From Marsupella aquatica (Eukaryota > Plantae > Marchantiophyta), in contig OZ316893.1 in NCBI GenBank assembly GCA_973895155.1, forward strand, positions 496,860 to 560,859: 64,000 nt of DNA, written 5' to 3'. The notes under the pieces were generated by a model. It worked only from the letters and a program-made list of their open reading frames with translations. It was not told the DNA's origin and ran no database searches. Made by a program: the position numbers and the translations under genes. Shown piece by piece: positions 20,401 to 57,571 of this stretch (its first letter is position 1; each line of letters starts with the position of its first letter).

Positions 20401-20584
20401 TGTTGAGTTGGGTTGGAGATATGTGTTGGGGGTGTGAGAGTTGTGGGTTTAGAGTGTCATCCCCAGTTTTCACATGTGGCATACCAGATTTTTAAGTATT
20501 GGTATGATTATTGTATATTGGGGGTGAGTTTGACCCCCAGTTTGTTGTGTGCGCATTTTGGAGGGGTTAGGGGTGGGGGTACCC

Positions 20585-27680: not shown

Positions 27681-27748
27681 TGTGATGCCTAGCCAGGAAT
27701 CATTGTGCTAGTTTAAGGGGAAAAGGGAAGTGTACCCTAGAAACACCT
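27681..27748 (+). mobile_element. Family-3 LTR 5' tip (copy D), interrupted by a LINE insertion
   Basis: TGTGATGCCTAGCCAGGAATCA...GTTTAAGGGGAAAAGGGAAGTGTACCCTAGAAACACCT matches the reverse complement of 62208-62275 and is followed immediately by a T-rich tract. Confidence 0.85.
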
Positions 27749-29237: not shown

Positions 29238-31597
29238 CCTGGCCCATTCCGATTCCGGTCTATCAAGCGCCCCAGTAAACCATTTACTTAGTAGATGCCA
29301 GCACTTTATATGCAGGATTCAGAAGAATAGCCGTTCCGCCTCTACCATCGTCAGGAGCAGAGTAAAAGTGTTGATAGTTGGGCAAGATCGTGCGTAGGGC
29401 CAGATCCAACCAAAAGCTATCCGCCTTTACTTCCTGTAGAGCGAGAGCATCTAGGGGCAATTTTCAGAGAGGATGTCCATTTCATTACAACATTTTTCCG
29501 GTCAGGGTCACACAGACCGCAGACGTTCCAAGACGCAAAATTAAAGGGCGCCATCCATATATATGACACCACAAAAGGTATACCACCCACGGCTTAGCCT
29601 CTCATCCCAAGCTGAGCAGCACAATTTAAGCAGAGGGGATAGAACCAGCGGGAATTCCCGTTAAAATATCAGAAGAACCGGGTACCATGCCAGGGGAGGT
29701 GCTGCGAGATATAGCCACTGTCGTATCTACCTCCAGGGAAGAGCCCTCAGATTGCTTCTTGTGATCACGTTGCAGCTTACATCCAGGTGTCACCCATCCT
29801 CCCGCGTCCTGCAAGGTAGAATCAGGGATGAATTGTAAGGATTTCTGATTTTTTGCTTTCTTCTTTTCCTTCTCTTTTTTCTTATCTTCAGGCGGTGATC
29901 TTCTTGCCAGCTTTCGGGCTCTCTCCTTTTTTTGGGCGGTGCGGGAGATAAATCCCTCGTACTCAGAAACCTCCATGTCAAATGGAATCTCAGGGGTAGA
30001 ATGCTCATCCTCGGCCTCTACCATTTTGTTAGAAACACCAGCGTTTAAAAGCAAAGGCACTACTGGTTCAGCTTCTGGGGCACTAGGACTAGTTCCAGAA
30101 TGCAAGAAAGAAAGCTCAAGAGTAGCGACAGTGTTCAAAATAGGCTCGTCCCTGTTCATAGCTTGCAAGTCATGCAGCACTCCCGGGCCGGGATGGCATT
30201 CATGTCAGAAAAAAGATGAGCAGACGTTACTTGCAAATTCAATCCGTCAGTAGATTCGTCAATTTCCCTATCAATAGCAACTGCACGAGAATCCCCCTCA
30301 AGATCTTGAGAACTCCCAAAAAGCGCAAATTCTCCTTCCGCATTCATAGGTAGTCTTTGAGCCAATGGAGTGATACTCCTCCCCGTTGATAGGGGCAAGG
30401 TAGCAACGGTCGCAGGATGGCTTGGCTGATCTGAATTAAGGGCATCAGCCTCCAATGCAACAACAACCAATGGCTCAGTAGTCGCAGGCACCAGGGGAGT
30501 TGGCAGCTCCTCAGCAAGTTGAGTGGCTGCAGGCGCAGGCACCTCATTTACTCGACAGTCCCGGGCTAAATGGCCCTTCTTATTGCAGCTAAAGCAATGA
30601 AATGGAATATTCTTGAATATTACTGGTTGCCATATAGAAAGATCAGCCTTGATCTGAACCTCCACACTCAATGGCACCTCCCGCTTGGTATCCCAAATGT
30701 CACGTCGTAGGCTTCGGCCTTAACTCAGACTTGAGCTTAGACGGGCACATCCCTCGTAAATCTGAGGGTTCGGGCAGGAAGGGAAGCACGGAATGCACCT
30801 TATTATCGTAAACTAGCGCTAAGTGCGCATACTGCTAAATACGGACACCTCCTAGGTATGGTTTGTGTTCCGCCGCCGGAACGTACCTTAGTCGATAGCA
30901 GGATCGACCCCGGCTTAAGGGCTTCTAAGCCTTCGTGCTGTCCGCCTTCGATCCGGATTCGATGATACAGGTCCTCAACCCGTGCTCGCAACCACTTACC
31001 CGCAGGCTGCACCCTGTGCACGTCTCGGGTAGTGCGTTCGGCCCGGCGCTGCCACCCATATACGAGAAACCCACACACATATGCGCACACATGCATACAA
31101 TCTCGATTTACACGAAGGAAAAATGATGGGAAAGGATTTTACTACAAAGGGAACATATGCGTACACTTAGTTGACACGACAGCCCTGGAATGCACAGGTT
31201 CAAGGCCAAGGGTGCACACTACAACGGAGCCCGGCTCCGCACTCACCCGACGAGCTTAGTCCTACCCCCTCCCCTTGGTACTCTGTCATTCCCAGAGGTC
31301 GGGACTCCCCGCATATCCCGCGGATGTCCGACTCTGAAACTAAAAACCCCCCCCTTGCCTCTACCGAGGGGTGCACTAAATACTAAGAGCCGAGGAACGG
31401 GGTGTCCTCCCGCCGAAGATTCGCTGACCAAGGTCCTAACTAAGCTGACAGTCAGGCCGGAAAACGGCTATGTCTTATTAGAAGATCCTAATCTACGCAG
31501 GCTGGACAGCAAGGCAGCGCTGCTGTACCTAAGGTAGGTGCCTGTCCCAAGAGCCTGACTAAGCCAATCCTAATCCTAATCTATTCCTACTCCACCG

Positions 31598-34228
31598 CTA
31601 ATGCCTGGCACGCTTGCCAGAGCCGCCCGAATGGGAACGGCCATCCCGCTGCCTTCGAAGCCTGTCATTGTCCGCTTTGAGGAGCTGGACCTGGTCCAGC
31701 AGAGATTCGTTCTCTCGCCTCGCCGCGTCCGTCTCCTCTGCTGCCTCCTGACATGCCTCCTCCAGCTGCTGGGCGTCGCTCGTCAGTTTACTCGCCAGCT
31801 GGTCCTGCTTCTCAGCCTCGGTTTGGAGCCGCGCCATCTCGGCCTGCAGCGTGGCTATCTCCGTCGCGTCCCGCTGGGCTCGCTCCTCGGCCTCCTCCAA
31901 GTCTTTCTGCCAGGTGACAGCTTGTTTCTTCAAACTGTCAATCTGGTTCCGGAGTCGTGTAATCTCGGCCTCGTTCCCAGCTTTGGCCTGTTCGGCTAGG
32001 GCGGTAAGAGCGTACGCCTTTGCTAACAACTCATCGGCGGCTGCAACCTTGGGTCGTAGTTGCAGAAGCTCAGCCTCTTGAGCCGCCACTTCGTTCTTTA
32101 GGTACACGGACTCCACCCGGTACCGCTCTATCCTCTGAAGGGCCTCCGACTGGGCCCGCCCTGCCTTTACGGCGGCAACCAACTCCTGATTGAAGAAACA
32201 GGCTACCTTCCGGGCCATGAACTCCCCGGTATCCCGGGCAATTTGATGAGAGAAATCTCCCAGAAGCCCGTTCAGAAACGTACCCTGTACGAAGAGTTCC
32301 GGGTGGTCCAAGTTGTGCCTGTCCGGATTTGGGCACGGGCAGACATCAACACGCGCAGGGGCCGGGGCAGTGACGTCCAGCCCTGGGGACATAACGTTGG
32401 AAGGGGCTGGAGTGTCCTCCTGTAGCAATGTCCGGTTCTCCGGAATTGCCACTGGCGGGTCCTTGGGAGACCCGGGTTCGGGTAAGACCTCTGCCGTACC
32501 AACTTCTGTACTTAGCCCGGCTAGTTGGGTCGCATCAACGGTTGCGACGACCGACCCCTCCGGCGCCTCCTCGGTTACGATTACAGCTATTTGTGGAGGT
32601 GGGGTGGGTGAAGCTGGCGTGTCCACTGGACTTCGGGCCTCGGGTTGGGGCCGTCTCTCCAATGCCGGAAAAACCCACCTAGCTGGGACCAGCTTTGTAA
32701 CGTTGATGCGGGGAAGGGTTCGTCGATCAAACCGGGCGTACCACTCAAGAATGATTTCGATGTGGCTAGCGAAATACGCCTTCCCGCCAATGTACAGCGT
32801 CTTCCTTCGCCGCTCCATCTCTTCATGGAATTTCTTAGCGAAGTACGACGCCCATTTCCTAGGTCGATAGTTCTCGACCTGGATGACCTGGGCGGCGGAG
32901 ATCTCCCCCCGGGGTTCCATCATGTGGAGAGCGTACCTCTGGAACTCCAGCCGCTCAGCTATCTCGGGCATGAGGCAGGTCCTCATCACGAACCCGTTGT
33001 CTACTGATCCCTCTGAGGGAAAACTTGAAGATTGGTACTTGGCCCCCTTGCCACCGGGAGCCCGTGATTCGACTCGATGGTCACCTTCGGGTAACCCGAA
33101 GATCATCTTGAGCCGTTCTTCTGTGAGGGACATATTCCTTCCCCGCAGCCGAGTCTGTTGACGTACGTCGTCATAATTCTTGACGAATTCTGTCATGTCC
33201 TCCCCGTAGTACCTGCAAGTGTTCCAGGGGAGAGAGGCGAGGTGCTCAAATCCCTGAGTCTTCAGGTACACCGCATGCTTGGGATGGAGGATGTTGCTGT
33301 GAACGTTTTCCCCCATGCGATGCATCGTTACCTTGGCTACAGCTACCGTGGCCAACGGTAACCCGGATGCACTGGCGGATTCCTTCCTCTTCTTTCCCCG
33401 TGACTGACTCGGGGAAGGTGATACTTCCCCATCCTCCCGATCGGGCCTGGGGAGTGCCACTGCGGTTGGTAACGGGCTCGGGGCGGCCACGGTCACCATG
33501 TTGTCTGCTGGGGCCGCTTCTGGGGTCAGAGCAGGGGGTGGGGACGATATAGTGTCGGCCCCCCGAGCGCTTGTTCCTCTGGGCCGCCTGGTCAAGGGTG
33601 GGGGAGCCTCGTCGTCATCGCTAAGATCCACAGCGTTGATGACGGAGCGTACCTGTGCTGGCTGGGTGATAGGTGGTGGGGTTTGGCTAGGCTGCGGCTG
33701 AGGCTGAAGCTGAGGTTGCATGGGCACGGGTACGGGTACGGGCCCGGCTGAGTTGGTCATGTTGGTTGATGGCCGAGTTCCCATGAAGCTCTGTAGGTGC
33801 TGGTAGAAGTTCTCCGAAGCGAGTGCAGACGCCCTTGTCGAATGGTTGGTACTGGACTCGCCGTTAATGACAGCCCGAACCTGGGCAGGGATGTGGTCAA
33901 AGTGATGTCGCTGCAGGTCGATTGTACCCGGGATATTGAAGACCTCGTCCGGAAGCCGAAGCAATGCTTCCCAAAACCCGATATATTTGTCTCCGTTGAA
34001 GAAGTACCCAGATACCTCAGCTGGTCGGTAAAGCTCGCTCTGAGACGGGTAGTCAAAGTTAAGGACGTAGTGGTGTCGTCCTGCTAGGCGGATGGCTCTC
34101 TCGTATTCGCGTTCGATCTCGTATCGGCGCGGGTTGGCGTGTTTCAATGAATCGGCCAAGTGCCTTCCGGTAGATAGGAACTACGTCCAGAATCGAATGG
34201 CCGAGCTAGAGAGGATCGTGTGCGACAT
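31598..34228 (-). CDS. LTR-encoded protein, family 1 (~876 codons from ATG 34228; one TAG at 34181-34183, then 853 aa open): PMD-like core plus coiled coil
   Basis: The in-frame ATG gives MSHTILSSSAIRFWT*FLSTGRHLADS. Core GFEHLASLPW...EFVKNYD...TRLRGRNMSLTEERLKMIFGLPEG, Pro-rich linkers, a C-terminal heptad-rich region and a basic tail. Confidence 0.75.
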
Positions 34229-34329
34229 TCAGAGGAGATAGTAGTGGCGACCTAGAGAGAACGAGAGAGCTGGGGTCAAAGCTGGCGCGCGGACTGATGG
34301 ACTGGTGCACTACAAAGGGTTGGCTCCCC

Positions 34330-34336
34330 TTTTATA
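34330..34336 (-). promoter_or_regulatory. Candidate LTR TATA box, family 1
   Basis: TATAAAAGGGG on the minus strand, ~360 bp inside the LTR start and ~100 bp upstream of ATG 34228. Confidence 0.55.
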
Positions 34337-35124
34337 CTTTGAGGGCTTGTCGATCCCTGACGTCTCCTCGACGCCCATAGGTTGAACCGCTCACGCTTGT
34401 GGTGTACCGGCCACTCCGCCGGTCTGAGTCAGCGTGCGTCAGTGGCCGCTTCCTTAAGTTCGTTATACGGACCCGAGGGAGGGGCCCCTCCACGCTCGTA
34501 ACCCGGGTGTGCGAATAGCGACCCGCCGCCAGCCCGAACCTGAAGTCCCCCTTATTGCCTAATGATGTCCTACCCCTAATGATTACCTAAATACTGTCGT
34601 TATGCTAATAATAGCGGCCTAAGACCCACCTAACGCGCGTGCCGAGCGCAGTTAGACTGAATCACTCATTAACCGCCGTACCGGCGGCGTCACACCAAAG
34701 TACACAGGCCCTGTCGTGTGGATAAGTGCTCAGGTCGTCACCCTGAATATAGTGAAGAATGTCGCCCAAGGACGCAGCAAGCTTCCGACGACAAGGTTCA
34801 AGTAGCAATGCACCGAATGGAATCTCAATCCACACAGGCAATAAGGTATAAGATTCACTTCTGATGTCAAAGGAAGGATCCCAAGGGAAAGTGAATACAA
34901 ATTTTTGCTCCAAGAACCAGGGGGCACAAGCCAGTGCAAAATCTCGATGTTTGGGATTCCTGAATGCTACCATATAGAAGTTTTTCCCAATGAATTTGAC
35001 TTGCGAAACAGGCCAATTCATCTCAGAAACGAAGGTCTTCTCCACCCAGAACTTAAATGTGGACAGCATCGGTGCGCGATTAGTAAAATAACACATCATG
35101 GAGCAGTTATACAGTTTGGTCACC

Positions 35125-38100
35125 TGTCACTTGCCTATCCAACGATTAATGCGTGCCAACCGTACTTTTCCTTGCTTAAACCGTTGGTATCGTATTACGG
35201 GGTCGTGGAGGGACGCTATTTGGAGGATTTTCACACCTAAGGATGAGTATGTTTGATTCCGCTCCCGGAAGTGTACTTTTTGATCAAGTCTACCGACTGG
35301 TCTCTCCGTTTTTGATCAAGTCCAAGGGACTGGTCCTACCATCTACAACTCATGCCCACCGGGTGAGTGCTGTCACCACCCCCCTCCTCTTTTGGGCAAG
35401 CATACCAACATTTACAATAAGATTTGAACACTAGTGACAAGAGCAAATGTTTCCACAAGGACACCGACCACACACACTAGGGGAGGAAAACAAACAACAC
35501 AAGCAACAACAAGTGACACACGAAATATTGGAACCTCAAGCCAAATCCATATCTCTTGGTGTTTCCCGTAACACATGCAAGGACAACCCGGCCTCCTGCC
35601 GTCTGCCCAACTCCTGCCTCCCGGGACAAGTGCTACGTTCTCCACCTCACTACTCTGGCTTGAACTTCTCCTAATCGGTGCGCTACTCACAAAAGCTACT
35701 CCAAAGCCAAGTACTACGCTGAGTTCCCCCCCTCACTACTCTGGGGCTCTCCCCCTAAATACCAAAAAACACACCAAAGCACCCCTCACGGGGCCACAAC
35801 GAAGGCGGCTTACCCTAGCGGCGCCGCTAAACCCTTCACTAAGAAACCCCTAAACTAAAACCATGCGGCACACACATGCGTCTAAAAACCCTAAACCCTA
35901 AACTAACAATGGGGCCGACGGTGCCTTCGACGGTGCCCCAACGTTATTCCGTGAACCGTGAAATTGCAAGGAACCCCACAATGGCCGAAACTAGGCGCCC
36001 CTCCACTTGCACTTCTGAGTTCACCCCTGGATAGCTCTCCTCCTCCTGATCACGGATCACTTCAACCGCTCTCTAAACGGACATTGGACGACCAAGTTAT
36101 GACCGTTTCCGTATCCCGTAAACACAACTTCGCCGGGCCATAACCTGCTCATCCTGGCTCCGTTTGAGGAGCGCCGCCTCTTGTTGGAATCAGCTCCGTG
36201 AGCTCTTTCCAACAAGCCCGTGAGTGACCCCTCACAAAAAGTTGGAAAGTCCAGGGGCCGTACAACCACGTCCGTACGACCACTCTAATCCTCCTCCTCT
36301 TCACTCACGGTGCCCTGGCTTGAGCCCCGTGAGTGGGCCTCCTCATCACTCTCCACTGGAGTGAGTGCCACTTCACTTCTCTTCTTCTTTACCGGGGTAC
36401 TCCTTGTGCTAGTGCTCCCCTGCTTTCTCAAATTGGCCAAGGCCTGCCACGCTTTAATGTACCCCTCACCAATGGTGTCCTTCCATAGGGTAGCCTCTTC
36501 TCCGGACCGCAACTCCAACGGTAGAACTTGCCCTGTGGCCATGGGAGTCCCGGGGGTGACAGACCTGGGTGGCATCCCTGTACTGACCTGAGCCTCCCGT
36601 AAGGATTTCCGTACCTCCCGGAGCTTCTTCTCCAAGCCCTTGCTCTTCTCCTGACTCTTCTTGGCTCCATCCAACAAGGGCCCATACTTCTCACTAACCT
36701 CCTTCACCACCATCTCAATAGCCTGGGAGATCAAATCCGGAGAAAGTGTGGAGCTAGGAGTGCCGGGGCTCTTCCGTTTCCCCAGACTCAAGGCCTCACT
36801 CCTCTTTGCTCGTGTCTCAAAGGCGGCCACCTGACTCCGTAGTGCTCCCACCTGGTTTCTCCACTCCACCACTTCTCCAGAATTCTGCTTCTCTTTGGCC
36901 AATGCTTGTCTCAATGCTCCCACCTCTTCTGCTTCCTTGGCCTTGGTGGACAAGGCTCCCTTCAAGTTGGAGATCTCTACGTGAGCTTCTTGGAGAAGCT
37001 TAACCTTCTCATGAATGGTCCCCTCCTTGGCCTTGATCACCTCCTTCAGAGACAGGGTACTCTGCTCTAACGTCTCTACTCTGGCTGTGGTGTGCTTGAG
37101 AGAATCTCTCAATGCGTGGACTAGCTTGAGTCCCTCATGGACTCCCTCTCTGAAATCCCGTAGCTCTGCCAGGTAAACATCCGGAATGTTGTAGGCCAGG
37201 GGCTCTTTCGGATCTCCCACGAGTGATTCAAGCCACTCCAATGTGTAGTCCTCATCTTGGTTTTCTTCTCCTCTATCTTCATCCCCACCAGCCGACGATG
37301 ATTCCTCCGTGAGCTTCCCTATAACGGTAGTGGCAATACTCCGGATCTCCATGGTGAGAGATGATTCTGTGTCTTCCTGTCCTGGGGAACCAATCAACCC
37401 TTCTGCCCTGGCCAATACAAATGACCCCATCAAATGTACAGCCCCACCTGGTTTCACACTCCCGAGGTCAGCGGCCAACAGCTTCTTCAACCCGTAGTAC
37501 CACCATCCGTACACATGGGCTGGGTGGTTCTTGATGTCCATAGCTACCACGAAATGCTCTTCATTCACCACCCCTGATTGCACGTTGCCAAGGACCCGTT
37601 GATGAACCTTGGCCAGGAATCCCTTATACTCAACATCCTTGACAGCGGAAAGAGAGATGGCAGTGGTGGAGGTGGGATTAATCACCCAAGTGGCCACCAT
37701 CTTCAACGTGAGTTCTCCCCTGATGTGCCGAGGTGTGAATGAGAATTTCTGATTCTCCAGAAACAGCAGCCTAGCCAACTCTACATGGGGCACTACACGT
37801 TTGAGACATTCAAAGTAGATTCCCTCCGTTCGTAACTCCATCCCGGCCTCAATGTCCCAGCTCTTCCCCGGGGGGATGGTAATCTCCACCTTCATGAATT
37901 CTGTAACCCCGGTGGCTTGGAAAATATTCCGACAATCCTCCATCACCTTGGCGGAGGTCTTGGGATAAATTCGACGAAAAATCCTCCTACCCACCGGTGT
38001 GGAACCTGCTGCCAATCCCGTGCTCATCGTAGCTTCTCTCTCTTCTCTCTCCCTTGCAATCAAAGTCTCCACATAGTCACGGTAAGCAGCCTTGTATCTC

Positions 38101-39523
38101 CGAATGCGTGCCACACTGAACTCCGGTTGATCTAGCATTCATGCATCCCGAAATCAAATCCTCAATCACCAAATCCCGTCACCCGTAGCAATGTCAATTC
38201 CCTGGCCCGAAACAGCCCCCGCATCCCGATCAATCGATTACTCTCAATTCCCCCAGAAGCCACTCCGGGCTGCTGCCGCTAATGCCCGGAAGAATCAGGC
38301 CACCAAGCCCCACCAATCTACCATGAGAGAGAGCTTCAAAAATAATTAGGAGGTGAGAGCTTTCGGCAAGGTGTTGGGAGAGAGTTTTGAGTTTTGCTTT
38401 CGGCAAGGAGAAGGTCGTGCAAAAGAGGGAGAAAAGAAGGGAAGAAAAAAAAAGAAAAAAAATCCCCCTCGACACCTCCTTTCGCCTTGTGCCCCGGGCC
38501 CTCCTTTAATGGCCCTCCCCGGTGCCCTCTTTCGCCTGGCTCACGGGAGCCCTAAATGCCTTGGGCACGCAGCCCTATGGGCTCGCCCCGGCCACCTGCC
38601 ATCTCACTTTTCTCGCGGGAGTCCCGGCTGCGCTCTCGCCCCGATGCCCCCCTGCGCCACTCGCGGGAGCACTTAGTGCTCGGCTACTCGCGGTTCAAAC
38701 GGGGGATTTAATTCCCCCCCCGACAGCCCTCTTTCGCCTCACGGCCACCCCCCGTAGCGCCCTCTTTCGCCTGGCTCGCGGGAGCCCTAAATGCCCTGGG
38801 CATGCAGCCCTATGGGCTCACGGGAGGGTTTTAATACCCCCCCCTTTACTCCTCGGCTGCGGCCCGGCTGCCCTTGCCCTGCTTGCGGGAGCCCTTACCT
38901 GGGGATTCCACGTGGCGGCCCTAGGGCTGCCCCTTATGGGCCCTTAAGTGCTCGCCCTCTGCCAGGCCACTTAAGGGGTATTTAACCCCCCTCCGCGACC
39001 TTCCTGCACCGGCCTCCCTACTTGGTACTCGCGGTGCCCCTTAAGGGGGAATTTTAATTTCTCCCCCACCCTCGGCGCCTTGCTTCCTTCAGCTCGCGGG
39101 GCTCCCCTCAAACGGGGGATTTAATCCCCCCTTTTCTTCTCCTGAACGCGGCCCTATGCAGGGCTCGCGACAGCCTCCTCCCTGTCCAGCCCGGCTCCGG
39201 CTGCCCATAAAAAAAAACTTCCCCCTAATCACACTGCCGGGGTCACCTCTACTCAAAAACTTCCTTGCTCCCGGTCCTGTTTTATTTCTTCTTCCCACCA
39301 ACCTTGCTATTGAGTTCTCTAAAAATGGCCCTAAAATAATGGGGAGTCCCCCAAAGGTAGGGCCCTCCTCCCAACATAATTGCAGAACAATTAGGGGATA
39401 AAAATAAATACAGTTCTTCGATCACAGGTGATGAAAAAATGGTTATTTACAATGGTTATTTACACTGCGCGACACTCCGCGACCAAGTTATTCGTGATTT
39501 TATGTGACGGGGACCCCGTCACA
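35125..39523 (-). repeat. Family-2 3' LTR (4399 bp)
   Basis: On the minus strand it starts TGTGACG directly after the purine tract AAGAGAGGAG-CTA and ends GCAAGTGACA at 35125, where LINE ORF1 resumes. Its last 231 bp match the 5' LTR remnant. Confidence 0.8.
36285..38138 (-). CDS. LTR-encoded protein, family 2 (617 aa, open), with coiled-coil C-terminal half
   Basis: Uninterrupted ATG-initiated ORF wholly inside the 3' LTR, on the same strand as gag-pol. It has heptad-like LETLEQ/LKEVIKAKE stretches and NLS-like GKRK and PVKKKR motifs. Confidence 0.75.
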   Translation of the reverse strand: MLDQPEFSVARIRRYKAAYRDYVETLIAREREEREATMSTGLAAGSTPVGRRIFRRIYPKTSAKVMEDCRNIFQATGVTEFMKVEITIPPGKSWDIEAGMELRTEGIYFECLKRVVPHVELARLLFLENQKFSFTPRHIRGELTLKMVATWVINPTSTTAISLSAVKDVEYKGFLAKVHQRVLGNVQSGVVNEEHFVVAMDIKNHPAHVYGWWYYGLKKLLAADLGSVKPGGAVHLMGSFVLARAEGLIGSPGQEDTESSLTMEIRSIATTVIGKLTEESSSAGGDEDRGEENQDEDYTLEWLESLVGDPKEPLAYNIPDVYLAELRDFREGVHEGLKLVHALRDSLKHTTARVETLEQSTLSLKEVIKAKEGTIHEKVKLLQEAHVEISNLKGALSTKAKEAEEVGALRQALAKEKQNSGEVVEWRNQVGALRSQVAAFETRAKRSEALSLGKRKSPGTPSSTLSPDLISQAIEMVVKEVSEKYGPLLDGAKKSQEKSKGLEKKLREVRKSLREAQVSTGMPPRSVTPGTPMATGQVLPLELRSGEEATLWKDTIGEGYIKAWQALANLRKQGSTSTRSTPVKKKRSEVALTPVESDEEAHSRGSSQGTVSEEEED

Positions 39524-42500
39524 TAGCTCCTCTCTTAATTGCGAAGCGCCCCCGCGAGCACCATACTCCTCCTCCGTGTAATACTTCTTTAGACGTTCTT
39601 GATTGATCCGTGTGTTGAGTAGTTGCCCCTCCAATGTCCTGAGTTGAACTGATCCGTTGGAGTAGACGGCGTCTACTACGTAGGGCCCCATCCAACGTGT
39701 ATGCAACTTCCCGGGGAAATGCATAAAACAACTGTCGTACAGGAGTACCAAATCTCCCTCCTCAATGGACACACGACGGAGACGAGAATCGTAATGTGAC
39801 TTCCGTTTGCTTTGCTCCTGCTCCGTACGGGTCAAAGCCTCTTCTCGTGTCTCAGTGAGTTGCTCCAACTGTTGGATCCGTGCTGCTACACTCCTTTCTT
39901 CCCCTTCCCTTTCCCGTGTGAGGATCCGAATGGTGGGCACTTCAAATTCCACCGGCACAAGAGAGTGTTGTCCAAACATAACGAAATAGGGGCTGTGGCC
40001 CGTGGTAGTCTTGTGAGCCAGGTTGTAGGCGTAAGTAGCAGCCAACAACTTCAAATCCCAATCGGTCTTGTGAGCTGATACCGTCTTGTTAAGAATCGTG
40101 CCCATGATCCCGTTTGCTCTCTCAGTGAGCCCGTTGGCTCGAGGATGGTACGGAGTGGTCTTCCTATGTGAGATCAGGTAGTTCTCCGTCAGACGTTCAA
40201 TTGTATGATTGAGAAAGTGAGTACCCCTGTCACTCACCAGCTCCAATGGGGGACCAAATCGTGTAAAAATCTGCTCGTACAAAAAACGTGCCGTGGTGTT
40301 GGCATCATCCTTGGCAGTGGTTCGGGCCTCCACCCACTTTGTGGCATAGTCCGTTGCAAGAATGATGTAGCGCTTCCTCCCTCTTCTAGTGATGGGAGTG
40401 AAGGGGCCAATGAAATCAACCCCCCACTTCTCAAAGGGTGCAAGAGGAAGTATGGGCACCAATGGGTGGCGTGAGGAGGGGCCAGGTTTGCCTTGGCGTT
40501 GGCAGGGGTCACATCTTTGGATGTACCGGTGCACATCCCGGAAAAGAGTTGGCCACCAATATCCAGCATCTAGTATCTTCCTTGTTGTGGTCTCCCGTGC
40601 AAAGTGGCCACCAGCTTCCTCCTCATGTAATGCTGCCATGACTGTACGTATCTCAGCTTCTTCCAAACAACGACGAAGATGGCCATCCATGCCGTACTTG
40701 TGAAGTACTCCCCTCACAAGCAAGTAGGGACCTGTCTTACGTAAAAACACTGCTGCTCTCTCCGGGCCCAAACGTGAGGGAACTCTTGCCGTACGGAGAA
40801 ATTCCAAAATTTCCCCATACCAAGTAGTGGCCTCCGTAGTCACCCTGAAGACTTCTTCATCGGGAAAACGATCATCAATCTCTTGAGAGTCAGATGCTCC
40901 CTCAATACGGGAGAAGAAGTCCGCATTGCTGTGACTCTTCCCGGATCTCACCTTCACCTCATAGTTGAACTCCTGCAATAATAGGACCCAACGTGCAATT
41001 CTCCCCGACAAGTCTGGCTTGTTGACCATGTACTTCAAACTATTGTGATCCGTGTGGAACACAACCTTGTAACCCAACAAATAATGACGATACTTCTTAC
41101 AAGCATAAATGATACCAAGTGCCTCCCTATCGGTGGGTGAGTAGTTCTTTTCTGCCGGGGCCAACTGCCTACTGGCAAAGTAGATGGGATGGTCCCTTCC
41201 ATCATCATCCAACTGACTCAACACGGCACCGATGCAAAATCCTGATACGTCTACGTAAACATGGAACTCCTTATTCCAATTAGGCATAATGAGTACGGGG
41301 GCCTCTAGCAAACGTTTCTTCAATTCATCAAAAGCAGCCTGTCGGGGTGGAGTAGGTTCAAATTCACTTCCCTTCTTCAACATGGAGGTGAGTGGCATGG
41401 CTACCTTGGCAAAGTCTTTGATGAAGCGTCGATAGTATCCAACACACCCTAAGAACCCTCTCACTTCCTTTACGTTCTTGGGAAATGAGACTGCTACCCA
41501 CACGGCCACCTTCTCGCGGTCAACTTCAATCCCCCGTGCAGACACTTTGTGGCCCAATAGGATCCCCTCCTCAATTCCAAAGAAACATTTCTCAGGATGC
41601 AGCCTCAAGCAAGTCTCCCGGCACCGCTGAAAAGTCAACCGTAAGTGTTCCGGATGCTTGACTCGTTTGCCATAGACAACAAAGTCGTCAATAAAGATCT
41701 CCAAGAACCTGCGTAAAAAGTCATGAAATATATTCATCATGAGCCGCTGGAACATGCCAGGGGCATTGCACAACCCAAAAGGCATTCTACGGAATGCAAA
41801 AATCCCCCACTCCGTAGTGAAAGCCGTCTTGAGTTGGTCCTCCTCCCGTATCCAAATTTGGTTGTAGCCAGAGTAGCCATCCAAGAAGCTGTAAATCTCC
41901 CAACCAGCTACCATATCCAACACGATATCGGTAAACGGCAGTGGGTAGTGATCCTTCTTGGTCGCCTCATTCAACTTTCGAAAATCTTGGCACACCCGTA
42001 TTTTCACCTTCCCGTCTGGCCCCTTCTTCTTGGGCACGATCACGATGGGTGACACCCACTCACTATGCATGACCGGATAAATGAAGCCTGCATCCAACAA
42101 ACGGTCAATCTCCTCCTTCACCATGAGTGAGTACTTGGGGTTGAGGCGGTATTGGCGTTGCCTTACAGGTCGTGCTCCTGACATCAGGTCAATGCCGTGC
42201 TCACCAAACTCAGGTGGCACTCCTTTCAAATCTTGGTGGCCCCACGCAAATACGTCTTGGTACTCCTTCAACAATTCTTGAATCTTGCGTTGCTCCGTAG
42301 CATCCAACTTACTACCAATGTTGAGTGTCTTGCCCTCACCCACTTCCACCTTGGTGTACTGCTCCGGCCTGATCACGTCCAGCTTGTTGCGTGTCTCCTC
42401 ATCAAAGGTCTCTTCCAACCGTGCGAGCCTCATCCCTCCATACACAGGTGCATCACTCTCCTCCTGGTCTGGCCGGGTTGGAGGTGGATCTTTTGTCACA

Positions 42501-44150
42501 TGGGCCATCATTTCTTCCACATCAGATTCTTTGTAATGTGACAGTAGCTCCTCTCTAAATTCTTCATCCAAGAGGTCATTCAACCACTCCTTCCTTCGTT
42601 CATCGTCAAACAAGATGGCTTGAGCTTCCTGGCCCTCCTCCTCCGTTTGTTCCTCCTCCTGAGTATCAACAAGCTGGGCCATTGGTGGTGTAGGTGGCTC
42701 TTCTCTGGTTTTCTTCTGCACAACACAACTTTGGTCAAGTGGTACCTCCTGAATTCTCTCCTCGGGGGTAGCAGCTTGTGGGCCAAATACATCTTCCTCC
42801 GTCAGATGAGAAATCAGCTTCACCATGTATACTTCATCCTCGTCCTCATCTGAGGTGACCTCTGAATCATATTGCTCTTCCATAGAGGTAGTCTCCCCTT
42901 GAGGTGACTCCGCTGACCAGGGAATGGTAATAGTGGGGGTGCCAAACCGAAATTGCCGTTTGCCCCAATCACTGGTGACCTTGGCCACATACAACCATGG
43001 CCTGCCAATTAAGATGGGAAAACCGTATGGCCGAACGGGTCGCATCACCAAATAGTTGAGGGGGAAAGATTTTCCCCCAATCATTGTTGGAATCTTGGTG
43101 AGACACCCCAACGGCACCACCCGTGCACCATCAGCCAACCTCATGGCACGTGCTGGTGGCTCTAACTCCGTATACCCCAACCGGTTTGCCGTCTCCTCAG
43201 TCATGATGTTGACTCCCGAGCCCTCGTCCACTGGTACAAACCGTATTGCACATCCGTTGATGTCTACCGTGAGTTCTGGGGCACCCAAATCCTCCGTGAC
43301 CCAGTTGACTTGTATGGGGTCAACCCCGACTTTGGGTAACCTTCGTCTACGTCTCCTCCTCATAAGAATCTCCTTGACTTGGCGGCGGTAGAGGGAGCTA
43401 TCACGTAGCAGTTGCCCAATCGTGGCACTGACTGGACAATCTAGAATATCTTGAGCAATGTTGTACGCAGTTGCAGGAGGTATGGGTGGGATGACCTCCT
43501 CTCCTGGTTTCCAACGAACAACTTTCTCCTCCGCTTTCTTTCTGGCCTTTGCCTCCTCTAGGTCTTTGTCAATGGCCGCTTGCATGGCTTGTGCTTCTAG
43601 TTCCTCCAGCTGCTTGCGTACCTCTTCTCCCACCTTTGGGTAGAACAACTTGGGGTTATCCCGGTCAAAGTCGCTATCTTCCATGGGTGGCACCTCCGGT
43701 TCGTGTGAGGTGCCCGATGTGGAAGCTTGATGCACCTCCTTGTACTTCTGCTTGAGTTCAGACTTGTCCTTCTTTTTCCCAGACCGAGTGGAGACCCGGT
43801 AACAAGAGTAGTGTCTCCTCTCATCATCACTGTCGACCTCCGGCAAATTTTCAGCGTGAGTCCACTCATGACTTGGGGACCGTGTGTGCTCAACAACTTC
43901 CGAAGTGACAACGACCACCAAAGGCGCCTCCACAACTGGAGATACTACAACGACTGATGGTACTAACTGTTCCTCGATGGTGACCAGCCTCTGCTTGGGA
44001 ACGTCCACTACGGGCTCTTCCCGTTTGGTGACCAACTCCTTTGCAGGGATGAACTCAAGCGGGTCAACCGCTTCCGTGGCAAGAAAGTTGACGTTAGCCT
44101 CTTTGAGCGGGGGTGGTGGTCCCTTCTTCTCCGGTCCTCCAGCTTGTTGA
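39500..44150 (-). CDS. pol: Gypsy pol polyprotein (protease, RT, RNase H, integrase), open for 1511+ aa
   Basis: PR VPVDEGSGVNIM; RT KDHYPLPF, FLDGYSGYNQI, MPFGLCNAP, IFIDDF; RH FHVYVDVS...EALGIIY...HTDHNSL; INT HEEEAGGH..CDPC, WGVDFIGP, SDRGTHF, NGLTER, WMGPY. Confidence 0.95.
39524..39536 (-). other. Polypurine tract of the family-2 element
   Basis: AAGAGAGGAGCTA immediately before the LTR start TGTGAC, overlapping the end of pol. Confidence 0.65.
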
Positions 44151-45889
44151 GCCTAGCTTGATTGCTTCCAAGGTTGGACAGTGTGGTGCAAGATGACCCT
44201 CCCCCTTGCACAATTGACACAACCGGGCAAAATCTCCGTTCCCTTGACGTGTGGGCTCCGGGCACACGTTAGCGTAGTGGCCAGCCACTCTACAATTGTA
44301 ACAAATAGGGATCTTCCTCACTCCAGGATACGGTGGCCTATTTCCGGGAGTAGCGTTGGAATAGTTAGCATATGGGGGTGCTTGAGCGTTAGTTGAGATC
44401 CCATGAATGCTCCTTGGTCCCGGGTTGAGCGGCTGCACACTATACACATTGGACTCTGGTGGCTCCTCCATGAAGTACTCAACTGGCCCCTCCGCTGCAT
44501 AGGAAGAGGTTGAGTAGCTGGCTCCTTCAACGTCCTCCTCCCGTACTTGGAAAACCTTGGCTGGTTCTCCCGCTGGGCACTCTTTCGGGGCATGACCAAA
44601 CTTCATGCACTTGGTGCACCACACGTTGGCTCTCTCTACTGGAACCTTTCTCCTCTCTGGCTTGAGACCTGCAAAGTGCACCTTCAACGCTTTCATTTGC
44701 TCTGTCAACTCATCATACCTGGCCTCTTGCTCCTTGAGATGTCTTGCCGTAGACAATGGGGTAATGGCCACCGTGGGTATCACCACTTCTCGATGAGACG
44801 ACTTCTTGGTCTTCTTGGACAACTTCTTCTTCCTCTTCTTTCGCTTCTCAGCTTCTGACTCCGTAGTGTCCGACTCCGTAGCGCTCTCAGAATCCTCAGA
44901 TTCATCACTACTATCCAACTCAGATCCACTGGATTCATCACTAGACGAACTGTCAACCGGCTTCAGCTTCTTTCTTCGGCAACGCTTGCTTGTGGCATCA
45001 GCTGCAGTGTATGACTCCGCTGCTGCAATAGCTTCAGCCAATGTGGTTGGCTTGGCTTGACGTACAAAGAACCCCATCTTGCTTGGTAGGGCAGCTACAA
45101 ACCACGCTTGACGCATAGCATCATCGGTACGGGCTTGTATCCGTCGTACTAACTTCTGGAACCTTTGCAAAAACCTCCGTAATGACTCCTTCTTCTTCAT
45201 CCTAAGTTGGCCCACCTTCAATAGCGACGTGGCCTCCACTCCGATGGATCTGAACTCCTTCAAGAAGGCTTGCTTGAACAAAGCCGGCAATCGGCTTTTA
45301 TGTTGGGCAACAACGAAATAAACCATGGGCCTGCCTCCCCTCTCATCATTCCAAGAATGATAGTGAGCTTATGTGCAGACTCCCCATTAGCTTCGGCAAT
45401 CCCTTCAAACTCCTCAATCCATTCGTCTGGATCATCTTTTGGTCTCCCCTTGAAGGGTACGTACTGAACACGGGTACGTTGTGCAGCTGGTGCCTGTATC
45501 AACACAGGTGGTAATGACGTACGTTGGGCCACCGGTAACAGCACCGATGATAGGTGTGAGACGATTTGTGGCAATGCAGTGAGCTCTGGAATGAGATTTT
45601 GTTGTAACTCAGACTGCACCAACACAAAGGGCTCTCCTTCTTCTAGCTCGTGATCTATGTCTGGCTCTTCGTCTAGGCGTATGGCCTCATTACGTTGAGC
45701 CTCTCCTGGTTGCACACCAACTTGTTCTTCCAGCACCAGTGGCAACCTCCTCTCTTCTGCAAGCCGTAAGCGTTCTTCGGCAGCAACACGTCGTCTGGTC
45801 CCAATCCAAGAGGGCCCCCGTTCTAGCTCGGGTAGTGGGGTACGTGTGTGTTGGGGACTTCCTCTACCTCCCCTTCTCCCTCTCGGCAT
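44094..45889 (-). pseudogene. gag: Gypsy gag, family 2, with a frameshift near 45270-45320 and a frame change before pol
   Basis: FKGRPKDDPDEWIEEF...GEAGPWF...FKQAFLKEF (retrotransposon gag) and three CCHC-type knuckles (CTKCMKFGHAPKEC, CYNCRVAGHYANVC, CQLCKGEGHLAPHC). Confidence 0.88.
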
Positions 45890-46105
45890 CCCATTGAGAC
45901 CTGCATTCCAAACTCACACCATTGTCTTAGAAAGCAATCTTTGTGAATATCAACCGTCGCACGATGCGTTGTGGTTGACGTACAATAACAAAGTAACCAA
46001 CAAACTTCTCACGTATCAACCGTCACAAGTTGCATTGTGGTTGATAGGCTTGAATTCCAAATAGACGTAGCTCTACCTCTTCGTGTAGTCAAACAAGAAG
46101 AAGGG

Positions 46106-46123
46106 TCCCCGGCAGCGGCGCCA
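46106..46123 (-). other. Primer-binding site, Athila-type (tRNA-Asp-like)
   Basis: TGGCGCCGCTGCCGGGGA on the minus strand, nearly identical to the Athila PBS TGGCGCCGTTGCCGGGGA. Confidence 0.8.
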
Positions 46124-46142
46124 AAAACAAGGACCACACTTA

Positions 46143-46373
46143 TGTCACTTGCCTATCCAACGATTAATGCGTGCCAACCGTACTTTTCCTTGCTTAAACC
46201 GTTGGTATCGTATTACGGGGTCGTGGAGGGACGCTATTTGGAGGATTTTCACACCTAAGGATGAGTATGTTTGATTCCGCTCCCGGAAGTGTACTTTTTG
46301 ATCAAGTCTACCGACTGGTCTCTCCATTTTTGATCAAGTCCAAGGGACTGGTTCTACCATCTACAACTCATGC
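46143..46373 (-). repeat. Family-2 5' LTR remnant (U5 end)
   Basis: Matches 35125-35355; cut at 46373 by the family-3 LTR start. Confidence 0.93.
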
Positions 46374-46467
46374 TGTGATGCCTAGACAGGAATCACTCGG
46401 CCAGTTAATTGGGTAAAGCAGGAAGGCACCCTAGGAACACCTTAGTATAGGGACAAAACAAGGAAAA

Positions 46468-46473
46468 TATAAA
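46468..46473 (+). promoter_or_regulatory. Candidate LTR TATA box, family 3
   Basis: AAAATATAAAC is conserved in copies A, B and C, ~95 bp inside the LTR start and ~280 bp upstream of the ORF ATG. Confidence 0.45.
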
Positions 46474-46749
46474 CCATTAGGGGCAACCATGGAACCCGGG
46501 CCAAGGCCGGAGGTAAGGACGCTGAGGGTGAAAACTTGATTAGGGTTAGGGCACGTTAAGCATCGGCGGCTAGGAAGGATCAACGGGAAGAAGGACCGGC
46601 AGAGGAGAGGGGTAAGGAGCGCTTGCAGGAGATGGTGGCTCATTTGCAAGCACGAACTAGGCAGACGACTACGGAAGGCCAACTACTGTCAGCTGCTTAG
46701 GCAAGCACTCGGGGAGAGAGTAGATACCGACGATCGACCTAAGGAGGGT

Positions 46750-49700
46750 ATGAGCAACGTCAATCAAGCGGCACATTTCTGGGGATGCCTGTTCAAACGG
46801 GCAACTGAGTACATCAAGACTTACGAGGACGAGGAATCAGAAAGGGCAGCTCGAGAACGGCAGGAGCTCGCTTGATTGTGGGAGCTGCAGAAGACGGCTT
46901 TCTTAGGAGGCGAACTCATCAAGGACGAGTTCCTGTGGACGCCTACTTCCAATCAACTCGACGATCTTCTGTTTTGCAAAGACAGCGTCGTCGGCATCCG
47001 AGAGGCCATCAAGAACTGCAACGACATACACTGGGAATTAAAGGGTAGCACGGAAAGGTGGACCCAGGCAACGGTGCTAGGAGAAACCTCCACGGCAGCA
47101 GAGATGAAGAGGAAGGGAGCCGTCAACGATGAAGCCACCCCGGCAAAAAGAACGAGGTCGGCGGCACCAAAGAAGCCAGCCGAGCAGAAGAGCAGGAGGC
47201 AGGGAGAAGCCGAAGAGGAGGAGGTCGATCCCATCAAGGCCATTCCAACCAGGGATGACACCTGGAAGGGCTGGGCGGCAACCCTACCGGTGGAGGTGCA
47301 ACTACATTTTGCACGGGAGGAGGATGCATGGTTCACGGCCATGCAGACCAAGAAGTACCAAGGCTTCATGGCCGGATCCGGCTTAGAGGCCTTTGTAAGA
47401 TTACCATGGCTGAAGCCGGAGGTACCGGAGTCAGACCTATTAGAATTCGTGGGGTCATGGGAACCCGAGACCAATTGCACGAGGATATATGGGAAGGATT
47501 TCTATCTTACTCCCAAGGTAATTGCCGAAGTGTTTGGTTTGCCGATAGGCAATAAGACCAAAGTTGATACCAGGAAGACCTTGCCTGACAAGGAGTTCCG
47601 GTCGTTCCCTGGGCCATCAACGAAGAATGGCTTCTTCCGGAACACCTGCACCAACCCGCACATAGGAGAGATGATCGACTTCTTGCGGGTGACCATGCAT
47701 TGTAACTTGCCGAGGGCAGAGATCGGCAAGGCACAGGTCTATCTGGCAGAAAGGCCAGACCCAAGCCGGGACTACAACGGGTACCTCCTCAACCAATTGA
47801 AGAAGATCTTAAAGGAGGAGCAACAGGTAATCGGCATGGGGAGCGTGTCACGGCTTGGCTATCACATGCCGCTATTGTGCCGGTATGCCAGAGGTCAGAC
47901 TTTTGCCCCAGTACTTCCCCTGCAGGTAAGGGCACCCGAGGAAGCTCCAACGCCGAGGCCGTTGGCTGAGAAGCCTCAACCACCTGTTAGCCCTACGATC
48001 GAGCAGGTGTTTAGGCCCAGGAAGGAGGACTTGCCGATGCAGCAACCAGGCATGCAGAGTCTGCTGAAACTACTGGAGAAAGAAAAGAAATCGGCATCGG
48101 CAACGGCAACGGCAACAATGCAGGACACTACTACAGAGGTAGGCCTACACCGGCTCACAAGAGAAAACCCCTTTGCTGGAGACAAGGAGAGAATCAGGCC
48201 GGAATCCAAGCCAGGTGTTCGAATGTACGTGGGAATCTCAAGCTCCGAATCTGAGGCAGATTGCCCGAAGCTCCTACCGACGAAGAGGAGAGGGAGAAGC
48301 CGGACGTCCAAGAAGTAGAGGAGGCAGTGGAGGACTGCAGCCATGATAATTCCGACTATGGGTCGGACCATCACGTTCCAGGAGTAAGGACCTGTGGCCG
48401 GTTTGTCCCCACACTTCCAAGGGTAGTGCGAGGGGACCCCAACCAGCAGAGTAGCCCTGAGTCTCCCCCACCAGATGTTGCTCCCCCGAGCTTCGACGGC
48501 ATAAAACAGATGGTGCAGGAATTTCAGGAGCGAATCAGGCAGGAAGAGGAGGCAGCCCTGGCTAGGGAAAAGGATTTACCAGGAGGAGATTGGCCGGAGG
48601 ACATCAGGCGGCTAGCCGAAAAAGGAAGCAAACCTCTAGCCACGATTGAAGAGATCCGCAGGACAGCTTGGGAGCAGAGGCCGCGATGGGCGATGCCGAT
48701 CACTTCTACTTACTCCACCTACGCTAAGAATAGAGCCATGGAGTATGGTGAGATGTGTGGGGAACTTGCGCTCGGCATCTTTGGAGAGGACTTGGAGGTA
48801 GGACCCTTTTTCCATAGGGAGCAGTTGGAGAAGCACCAATTAGAAGAAGCGGTGGCTTTAGAGAGAAGCAAGAAGGACGAGGTCATTCGGCGGCTTAGGA
48901 GGATGGAAGCCAAGATTGAAGATCTAAGGGCGGCCAAGAAAGCCCAAGATGAACTGCGGATTAAACGACATGAGCTGAACATCATGCAGGGGCAGTTGGA
49001 CACCGCGCAGGCTGATAATCAGAATATCAAGGATAAACTGACTCAGACGCAGGGAGAGTTGGCCGACACGATCAAAGAGAGGGAGAAGTGGAAGCAAGAG
49101 CTGAAAAATACAGAGGAGGCCCACATAACAGCCAACAGCCGGGCCATGGCGGAGACCCAAAGAAAGGAATGGGCGTTGAAGGGGGAGCTCAAGAAAATCC
49201 GCGGAGCCCTTGAGCAGAAGGAGGCCGAGTTAGGGAAATCCTATCAAGGGATTATGGCGCTGCAGCATGAGCTTGCGTCCCTGACGGCCAGCTTCAAGGC
49301 CGACCTAAGGGAGAAGGACGAGATGCTCGAATAGACTTACGCCAAGATGAACCAGATGGAGTCTGTCATCATTGCAGAGCTCGACAAGGAGCTAAGAGCA
49401 ACCCGGGAGGAGAGGACTACCTTGAAACAAGAACGGGAGGAAGCCCAGAAGGAACTAGAGGAGGCATGCAAGGACCTGGATGAGACCCAGGAGGAGTTGG
49501 AGGAAATCACGAGGAAGATGGAGAACCTCCAGCGGCGGGCCGACAACCAAACGGAGCGGCTGAAGAAACAAGCCGTAGTATTTAAGTGCTTGTCTTCATC
49601 AGGCCCAACTCCAATTGGGGCAACCAAGTTACCAGGAGTGGTACTGGCCGAAGAAAAAGCCGCGCCAACTGCACCAGTGCCGGAAGTAAGTGGGAAGGGG

Positions 49701-50117
49701 AAGGGACCAGCTGCCGAACCAGAAAAGAAGAAAAAGCGGAAACCTTCTGGGTCAAAGAGTAATCCGACTCCACAAGCCGTGGTGACCAAAGAGGTAGAAC
49801 CAGCACCATCCTCCGGCATGAATACGGCAATAGATCCCGCTATCATCACAGGTGGGGGTGGTGCGGCCCAAGCCGAACTACTCAGTAAGGAGGCCGGTAT
49901 TCCAGATCCGCCTCTTGAGCAGGCCGGGGAGACCGTAGCCGAGGCTGAGGCCATACCCGATTCCCGAGCCGATGCCGACGCCGATGGTGGACCCAGTCAG
50001 GCCGATGGAGAGTTGACTCAGTCAAGGGCAGGTAATCTGTCAGGGAATGAGCCTACGGCAGTGGCTGAGGAGGAAGCGTTGGGGGTGTCCATTAAGGATC
50101 CACCACCGGTGTCGTGA
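46750..50117 (+). pseudogene. LTR-encoded protein, family 3 copy A (~1100 aa when repaired): PMD-like core plus long coiled coil
   Basis: Starts MSNVNQAAHFWGCLF. Stops at ~46873 and ~49332 and a frame-shifting deletion near 48260 relative to copies B/C. ORF pieces 46876-48318, 48261-49334 and 49347-50117. Confidence 0.85.
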
Positions 50118-51033
50118 CGGTGCAAGGGCGCCGTTCCTTTTAGGGAGGGCGGACGTGGAGGGAGGAGGCGTGAGTGAGCAGGGCAGGCGCGGATCTCCAA
50201 GTTTAGGATTAGGATCAGGACCAGGAGCGGCCCTGACACTTAGCTTAGTGGGATTGCGGTCCCACTGGTAGGAGCAACACTTGTGCTCCTGCCTTGCTGT
50301 ACATAGGTAGATTCGGGCAAGTAGATTACTGTTAAGTAGATTAGGCTTACGATGCAAAGAATGGCGGATCCACTACCAGGATAAGTACCTGGGCAGCGGG
50401 GAGCTCAGGGCCTCTTCTTTAGCAAGTTTTTAGTTTGCACCAGCCGGGCTGGGATCAAGTAGTACGAGAAGCTCTCGGTTAGTCATACATTGACCCTTGT
50501 GTATATTCATGTTTCCTCATGCCTAAGAGCTGAATAGAGTTGGCCTCACGGCTTAGTTCGCAGAGCTTGTGTATGAGATGTACTGTTTGTATGGCAAGTG
50601 CATGGTATGACTCAGTCAGAATGAGTCATTTTGCTATTTGTGTGTCGCATTAACTTGTGTGAAGAGTGCCCACATCAACCAAAAGGAAGGAAAGTAAGCA
50701 GGGGAGTGAGAGTTGGATGTGTCCAGCTGAGAGAGGTCTTAGCGGCTTAACCAAGCCTATTGGGGATCATTCCGGCGGCGGAATCCAAACATACCTAACA
50801 AGACGGAGGGGAAGACAGGGGAAGGCCTAGATTAGGCTGGCTACGTATCTCATGACCCGATGAAGGATCTGTCCAGTATATGTGTGTAAAATGTTAATAG
50901 TAGTAGTAGAAGGTTAGCAGCGTCCCATGCCGCTAAGCCGCGGAAACGGCCTCGCCAAGCGCGAAACCTGCGGGAATCGGCTTGAGCTGGGGGGTTTCTT
51001 GGGTTTAGGGAGCCATGGGACGCACCACATTTT

Positions 51034-51050
51034 TGGCGCTAGATGGAGGG
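51034..51050 (+). other. Primer-binding site, family 3 copy A
   Basis: TGGCGCTAGATGGAGGG, 4 nt after the LTR-terminal CA; tRNA not assigned. Confidence 0.75.
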
Positions 51051-51098
51051 GGCATTTCTTAAGCCATGAGATATGAAGTTAGAACGGAAGCGTAGGTA

Positions 51099-57502: not shown

Positions 57503-57550
57503 TTACCTACGTTTCTTTCCTAACTTCATATCTCACGGCTTAAGAAATGC

Positions 57551-57567: not shown

Positions 57568-57571
57568 AAAA

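Follow-up and report, generated by a model that had tools for sequence, protein, structure and literature searches.

The extra open reading frames (ORFs) of plant long terminal repeat (LTR) retrotransposons have been placed in the internal region, either upstream of gag or behind pol and ahead of the 3' LTR (excerpt of PMC6317226; PMC7264820). A 64,000-nucleotide stretch of the liverwort Marsupella aquatica (contig OZ316893.1, positions 496,860 to 560,859, assembly GCA_973895155.1; here called the window) raises the question whether such a gene can also reside in the LTR itself. The window contains a Ty3/gypsy element on the minus strand, here called family 2, and an intact accessory ORF of 617 codons (ORF617) follows its pol gene. 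We found that this accessory gene very likely lies inside an LTR of approx. 4.4 kb (39523-35125). A first-pass annotation of the same DNA had proposed this placement, and it was supported by junctions to flanking DNA at 39523, by an approximately twofold depth of the ORF in public runs and by two further families in the window.

The family-2 element showed the order gag, protease (PR), reverse transcriptase (RT), RNase H (RH), followed by integrase (INT), together with a primer-binding site (PBS), a polypurine tract (PPT) and TG...CA LTRs, which identifies it as Ty3/gypsy. It ends with GTGACA at 35125, interrupting the ORF1 of a long interspersed nuclear element (LINE), and its predicted total length is approx. 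15.4 kb if both LTRs are full. Priming of plus-strand DNA at the PPT sets the start of an LTR, whose other end lies near the PBS, and the sequence downstream of the PPT is thereby duplicated. The distal end of the 3' LTR was fixed by its match to the 5' LTR, of which, as the first-pass annotation had stated, only 231 bp survive (46143-46373). At 229 of the 231 positions this remnant was identical to 35355-35125, and because the LTR pieces differ at two sites only, the insertion is young. No second copy of the sequence just past the cut at 46373 was found in the 64-kb window. The start of the 3' LTR at 39523 was fixed by loose contig ends leading into unlike flanks (runs X1, X3 and X4, see below) and by conservation in a relative, L001. 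At this position the pol frame crosses AAGAGAGGAG and CTA into TGTGAC, and its stop codon ends 24 nt within the LTR, where approx. 20 bp had been estimated. The Met of ORF617 lies 1385 nt from the LTR start, in agreement with the earlier estimate of 1.4 kb, and 1160 nt of LTR remain behind the ORF.

The LTR start could not be decided from the window alone, because the 5' remnant stops short of a second possible start and because this second start has a tract of its own. The remnant ends 20 nt before it. A scan for an alternative purine tract followed by TG, as envisaged in the first-pass annotation, did find this candidate, AAAAGAGGAGGGGGG-TGGTGACA at 35393-35375; when the non-coding 3' part was shuffled by dinucleotides, 31 of 1000 shuffles equalled it.

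Contigs from four public runs (X1-X4, from two studies; four of the seven listed runs, none of which is an RNA run) were compared with the element, and junctions were read on 39374-39673. Loose ends at 39523 were detected in X1 (two contigs, agreement 0.58, with three more at 39524, agreement 0.62), in X3 (six contigs, agreement 0.46, median 240 nt) and in X4 (eight contigs, agreement 0.45, median 141 nt). The sequences past these ends were mutually unlike in X1, X3 and X4. Two of the listed contigs matched the LTR side over 76-88 nt, past the terminal palindrome, and then entered other DNA; the junctions are thus no artefact of that palindrome. We concluded that this is the pattern left by 5' or solo LTRs that begin at 39523 and sit in different insertion sites.

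The summed contig depth of the ORF relative to that of RT-RH-INT was 1.95 in X1, 1.10 in X2, 3.10 in X3 and 1.84 in X4. When single long contigs were compared, the ratio of ORF to internal depth was 2.25 in X3 (one ORF contig and five internal ones) and 2.19 in X4 (four and two; a further internal contig, of depth 58 and stemming from a rare variant, was set aside). An ORF depth of approximately twofold fits a duplication of the gene in both LTRs.

Related elements were detected at 17 loci in a metagenome scan. Four of these were examined and L001 alone was informative, ending approx. 75 nt into its LTR. Its integrase was 63% identical to that of the family-2 element. The alignment covered 73 columns across the pol end, the tract, CTA and TGTGA, a stretch that is non-coding in L001, and the AAGAGAGGAG region aligned with GAGAGGGGGG-CTA-TGTGA at the same spacing. 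This conserved motif is also where two close homologues, P0001 and P0004, end. From this alignment and these two ends we concluded that the lineage has a conserved PPT, namely the tract that immediately follows pol. The pol frame of L001 stops ahead of the tract, at a codon aligned to a Glu codon of family 2, and the 22 extra pol codons of family 2 are likely due to a lost stop codon. The read-through looks family-wide: 26 variants were checked over the final 140 nt ahead of the LTR, of which 19 are silent and none introduces a stop. The first-pass annotation had placed the ORF inside the LTR on account of the overlap of pol and PPT. A causal role of this overlap is not supported, as pol of L001 stops ahead of an equally placed tract. 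In another relative (L002, 2-7150) the pol frame runs approx. 450 codons past integrase and by eye contains an apparent second protease-type motif, LLDSGAD; a TGGCGCCGCTGC site is found at 9854.

Table 1. Positions in the window of the family-2 element, its accessory gene and the gene-bearing LTRs of families 1 and 3. Coordinates count from the first nucleotide of the window.
Feature	Position	Strand	Remarks
Family-2 3' LTR	35125..39523	-	4399 bp, TGTGAC...GTGACA
Accessory ORF617	36285..38138	-	intact, 617 aa, inside LTR
Family-2 polypurine tract AAGAGAGGAG	39527..39536	-	followed by CTA and the LTR start
Family-2 pol ORF (PR-RT-RH-INT)	39500..44152	-	stop-to-stop, 1550 aa
Family-2 gag region	44094..45913	-	Retrotrans_gag and zinc knuckles; two reading frames in this copy
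Family-2 PBS TGGCGCCGCTGCCGGGGACCC	46103..46123	-	19 nt from 5' LTR end
Family-2 5' LTR remnant	46143..46373	-	231 bp; cut by family-1 element starting at 46374
Perfect hairpin	39503..39523	-	9-bp stem at the very start of the LTR; RNA fold
Second PPT-like purine run	35379..35393	-	15 nt, then TGGTGACA; 268 nt from LTR end; either a rival start of the LTR or a relic
Family-3 solo LTR	30698..34694	-	3997 bp; 5-bp target-site duplication (TSD) CCAAA; TGTGACG...CGTGACA; inside LINE ORF1
Family-3 860-codon frame	34180-31598	-	intact, within solo LTR
Family-1 5' LTR	46374..51029	+	4656 bp, TGTGATG to CA, then four T and PBS TGGCGCTAGA at 51034
Family-1 ORF, approx. 1160 codons	46636-50117	+	inside 5' LTR; broken in this copy
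Further family-1 copies	62275-57572; 26077-22946		
Motif TTCCGG-NN-GCGGAA...CAAACATAC	35247..35270 (also 30861-30881, 46269-46288, 50770-50790, 57834)	- (35247..35270)	3' parts of the LTRs of all three families

The PBS of family 2 (TGGCGCCGCTGCCGGGGACCC) is presumably of the tRNA-Asp type. A gap of 19 nt (46124-46142) separates it from the LTR end, compared with 4 nt in family 1. This gap is puzzling, because reverse transcription should start adjoining the LTR end. The same junction of LTR end and PBS with its 19-nt gap recurred in one contig of run X3.

Family 3 and family 1 provide two further cases of an ORF within an LTR. The family-3 solo LTR has the same GTGACA end as family 2, and one homologue of its ORF was found outside the window (P0135, 57%). 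In family 1, the second copy repeats the ORF between element start and PBS, the third copy is truncated and the fourth consists of the start only; the window holds no 3' LTR of this family, and its LTR status rests on the termini and the PBS. The core domain of the family-1 ORF gave dN/dS values of 0.078, 0.084 and 0.109 (three of three pairs), with 0.17-0.46 for the other parts and 0.24 for gag, and we concluded that the ORF is under purifying selection. This core was 28% identical to the family-3 ORF (E 6e-18). The LTR of each family opens with a stem-loop at or directly behind TGTGA (39503-39523, 34694 and 46374). In addition, the pattern TTCCGG-NN-GCGGAA...CAAAC at 146-260 nt from the LTR end gave four exact matches where none was expected, the pattern having been picked after it was seen. 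In pairwise comparisons with shuffled sequences, only the match of family 3 with family 1 stood out, being equalled in 0 of 200; for the two pairs that include family 2 the counts were 6 of 200 and 48 of 200. This LTR-end motif is a candidate R/U5 element common to families that are otherwise unalignable. Gene-bearing LTRs of 4.0-4.7 kb in three families of one window look like a lineage trait.

Two of the family-1 copies, approx. 89% identical and both truncated within gag-pol, lie tail-to-tail near 55366-55372 and form a 16-kb inverted structure (46374-62275). A lone 68-bp start of a family-1 LTR is found next to the LINE's 3' end at 27681-27748.

The overall explanation that we consider probable is a Ty3/gypsy element with a gene-bearing LTR of 4.4 kb, in which the gene would belong to U3 and might encode a trans-acting accessory protein. 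Plus-strand synthesis would start from the purine tract that adjoins pol, and all sequence downstream of the tract, among it the gene, would come to lie at both ends of the element. A promoter within the 1.4 kb ahead of ORF617 would drive its expression, transcription would end at the LTR's own termination signal, and solo LTRs would retain the complete gene cassette. For the position of the gene within the LTR, analogy gives a modest preference to U3. The sequence on the 5' side of ORF617 contains GC-rich repeats and a CT-rich stretch.

As to the origin of this arrangement, it is possible, if rather doubtful, that the PPT has shifted. The ancestor would have had the order pol-ORF-PPT-short LTR, a new PPT behind pol would have drawn the ORF into U3, and the purine run at 35379-35393 would be the relic of the old PPT. 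Consistent with a shift are this relic-like tract with TG close to the end of the LTR, CCAAAAGGAAGGAAAG at a comparable place in family 1 (348 nt before its LTR ends), the 3' extra ORFs of Athila (excerpt of PMC6317226) and the weak ATHILA-ORF1-like leads for the LTR proteins described below. The 3' part of the family-3 LTR, on the other hand, has no purine run of at least 13 nt, and no relative with the ancestral layout was detected among the 17 loci, of which four were examined. Moreover, the pol-proximal tract is already present in the 63% relative L001, and any shift of the PPT must therefore be old and unrelated to the read-through of pol. Other possible origins are an insertion into U3 or a capture into R/U5.

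It is unlikely that the ORF lies in R or U5. Transcription would then begin upstream of the ORF, which would be a 5' leader gene comparable to Ogre ORF1 or Retrosat2 ORF0, pulled into the LTR from the side of the PBS. Several observations would suit such a gene. The sequence TATAAA occurs upstream of the ORFs at LTR position 95 in family 1 and 359 in family 3; the family-2 LTR is without a TATA box and contains AATAAA/ATTAAA at 238-1014 and 3066; the PBS is displaced by 19 nt; and PMD has been found in Ogre extra ORFs (excerpt of PMC6317226). Against it speaks T-rich, terminator-like sequence past the ORF, with 36% T at LTR 4001-4200 in family 2 and 28-29% at 4001-4400 in family 1. A gene in R or U5 would furthermore require a minus-strand strong-stop DNA of more than 3 kb.

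A short LTR of approx. 251 bp (35375/35378-35125) with its own PPT would place the ORF between pol and the 3' LTR, as in Athila, and we regard it as very improbable. It would account for the unbroken 15-nt stretch of purines ahead of TG(G)TGACA, for the end of the surviving 5' LTR just before the rival start, and for the depth of the LTR-end bin in X1 and X2, which was 1.6x and 1.3x that of the next bin. In X3 and X4 the same bin had 0.83x and 0.82x the depth of the next one, and no loose end was detected at 35375-35378 among the matches listed (24 of 1762, a weak test). The junctions to flanks at 39523, an ORF depth of approx. twice that of pol in three of the four runs, the pol-proximal tract and TGTGA kept in L001, and the ORFs in the LTRs of two sister families likewise argue against a short LTR.

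Some results weigh against the long LTR. The purine run at 35379-35393 is stronger than the tract behind pol, and no intact copy with two full LTRs was found. In X2 there was no loose end at 39523 among the matches listed (24 of 73) and the depth ratio was only 1.10. Contig depth is a rough measure and not a copy number, and non-autonomous derivatives that carry the ORF would raise the ORF depth likewise. Most copies agree with the window copy through the end of pol and for another 10-35 nt of LTR before they diverge; the depth across 38211-39503 was low, although not zero. For most copies the LTR start is thus only deduced, because the flank junctions stem from a minority subfamily resembling the window copy. 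The first 1.3 kb of the LTR therefore differs between subfamilies, the window copy belonging to a minor one. The run that covers the element best may stem from the same sample as the window. The region 38211-39503, which consists of GC-rich short repeats and, unlike the flanking pol and ORF, is poorly common to copies, may be an exchangeable promoter module. Taken together, the external data (junctions, depth and L001) favour the long LTR over the short one.

The ORF617 protein comprises an N-terminal globular part (approx. residues 45-250), an acidic linker, a basic KKKR at 584 and an acidic tail, and coiled coils were predicted at 320-451 and 467-519 in a model of low overall confidence. Structure predictions had a mean pLDDT of 45.3 (single sequence) and of 49.7 for the N-domain (8 sequences). 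An exhaustive search yielded 14 homologues of 27-67% identity, which jointly cover both ends and one of which has the same N-terminal Met; a word-based protein search found no relative among 7997 candidates. No Pfam family was detected at E<=0.01, and PF03078, PF20167 and PF10536 gave no Pfam match even at E<=10. Fold searches of PDB and BFVD with the low-confidence model gave no match at E<=0.001, and a PDB sequence search returned coiled-coil noise only. In the ESM Atlas the N-domains of ORF617 and of the family-3 protein were placed near ATHILA-ORF1, Transposase_32 and PMD clusters at 0.78-0.83, values that shuffled proteins reached a third of the time.

ORF617 is possibly a very diverged relative of the ATHILA-ORF1/Transposase_32/PMD proteins. 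This link to ATHILA and Transposase_32 is a lead only, and Pfam finds none of these families. Two further results weigh against the overall explanation: ORF617 showed no detectable homology to the ORFs of families 1 and 3, and of the three listed variants in ORF617 one is silent and two change a residue. When the N-domain of ORF617 was compared with the domain of families 1 and 3, the hhalign probability was 1.1%, which was reached by one of 20 shuffles. We do not claim a single origin of the three LTR genes, because the profile comparison did not rise above shuffles. In Arabidopsis, PMD proteins act in transposon silencing, and PMD proteins borne by transposable elements have been proposed as counter-silencing factors (excerpt of PMC8616336). 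The anti-silencing function proposed here derives from this proposal and from the PMD lead, and is itself a lead only. On the predicted features, ORF617 might tentatively be regarded as a nuclear coiled-coil accessory factor with a trans effect on how the family is transcribed or silenced. An Env-like protein, which the position of a sense ORF downstream of pol, that of env-like ORFs (PMC7264820), and the long coiled coil would allow, is most improbable, since ORF617 has no transmembrane-like segment (19-residue Kyte-Doolittle maximum 1.09) and its low-confidence model gave no viral or PDB match.

The named neighbours of the RT-RH-INT region were from Riccia sorocarpa (up to 58%) and Marchantia (46%), and the best whole-region match was 74%. 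In the RT-RH tree the element belonged to a 27-row clade with Riccia and Marchantia, apart from 21 angiosperm-type rows (SH-aLRT 100). This was a quick tree of 46 of the 48 chosen matches (of 120 listed) and two window rows, rooted at the midpoint with no outgroup and no labelled references. By Pfam, pol contained no chromodomain family, INT ending the ORF, and no additional RNase H (aRH) in the form of a second RH family. The native RH keeps D, E, D and D at the motif positions, which we take to be a catalytic-type motif. The element thus appears to be a non-chromovirus Ty3/gypsy element, placed by matches without lineage labels and a tree without outgroup. The lack of an aRH together with an intact RH fits either a sister of Athila or the aRH-less Tat Z1/Z2 of liverworts.

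The first-pass annotation had called the PBS Athila-type; membership of the element in Athila was not supported. Like Athila, the element has no additional RNase H. An Athila PBS is of the tRNA-Asp type and lies 0-5 nt from the LTR; here the distance is 19 nt and the type is presumed. The extra ORF of Athila is internal, between pol and PPT, whereas here the PPT and the LTR start lie upstream of the ORF. The element moreover groups with Riccia and Marchantia, and a tRNA-Asp PBS is also used by TatII (excerpt of PMC6317226). The absence of an aRH and the intact native RH are those of Tat Z1/Z2. Tat elements with an aRH (TatI-III, Ogre, Retand) were rejected, as there is no second RH and the native RH is undegraded. 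Phygy was likewise rejected, given the PBS beginning TGGCGCC, the presence of an extra ORF and a related solo LTR with a 5-bp TSD. Athila, Phygy and Tat labels have all been reported in a liverwort genome (excerpt of PMC12885004).

Outside these elements, the window contains pieces of a CACTA-type transposase (Transposase_21, DUF4218 and DUF4216) at 811-4566. Complex arrays of approx. 120-, 217-, 360- and 434-bp repeats with telomere-like TTTAGGG words occupy 16043-22718.

Among known systems, the closest analogue of family 2 is the sag gene of mouse mammary tumour virus (MMTV), in that a whole accessory ORF is contained within an enlarged LTR and hence is present at both ends (excerpt of PMC3026287). 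MMTV is a retrovirus with a 1.3-kb LTR, and its sag product, a superantigen, stems from spliced RNAs (same excerpt), whereas the window families have plant LTRs of 4.0-4.7 kb and proteins of approx. 600-1200 codons, and no sequence relation to sag was detected. Athila elements with a 3' extra ORF are alike in their non-chromovirus type, which is probable for family 2, and in the lack of an aRH, the TGGCGCC-type PBS and a sense ORF past pol (excerpt of PMC6317226; PMC7264820). Their ORF belongs to the internal region, where it lies behind pol and ahead of the 3' LTR, whereas in family 2 the tract abuts pol, the ORF lies in the LTR and RT-RH groups with liverwort elements. Such 3' extra ORFs are given for 47% of Athila in a supplement row (PMC6317226, excerpt). 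Tat Z1/Z2, which occur in liverworts and further non-flowering plants, share with family 2 the lack of an aRH, an undegraded native RH and occurrence in Marchantia; an LTR-borne ORF, as is very likely for family 2, is not mentioned in the excerpts of PMC10508981 and PMC13468544. Ogre (PMC6431247, excerpt) and Retrosat2/RIRE3/RIRE8 (PMC3485330, excerpt) also combine giant LTRs, of 1.9-6.5 kb and >3.2 kb, with a fast-evolving extra ORF, but the excerpts describe these ORFs as internal or upstream of gag-pol and outside the LTR. In Phygy/Selgy the polyprotein fills nearly the whole internal region, as in family 2; Phygy elements are 7.7-10 kb long, with a tRNA-Trp PBS, a 4-bp NCGN TSD and no extra ORFs (excerpt of PMC6317226), in contrast to the approx. 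15.4 kb of family 2. No plant retrotransposon whose LTR harbours a conserved gene was found in the literature, judged by titles and abstract starts, with subscription papers and Repbase outside the scope.

We tentatively propose that in a liverwort Ty3/gypsy lineage the entire accessory gene has been transferred to giant LTRs, so that each solo LTR may be a selected cassette that supplies a trans-acting anti-silencing or transcription factor after the loss of gag-pol. Such a cassette would consist of a promoter, an ORF of 600-1200 codons and a terminator. If this is true, the recombination that normally kills an element leaves its regulator behind and seeds PMD-like host genes. A large selected gene inside the LTR would change the status of the solo LTR, from an inert promoter to an intact gene. 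LTR-borne genes would escape surveys of extra ORFs and could be annotated as host genes. The arrangement would be a plant parallel to MMTV sag, and a natural cassette free of gag-pol would allow a clean test of the role of the accessory protein.

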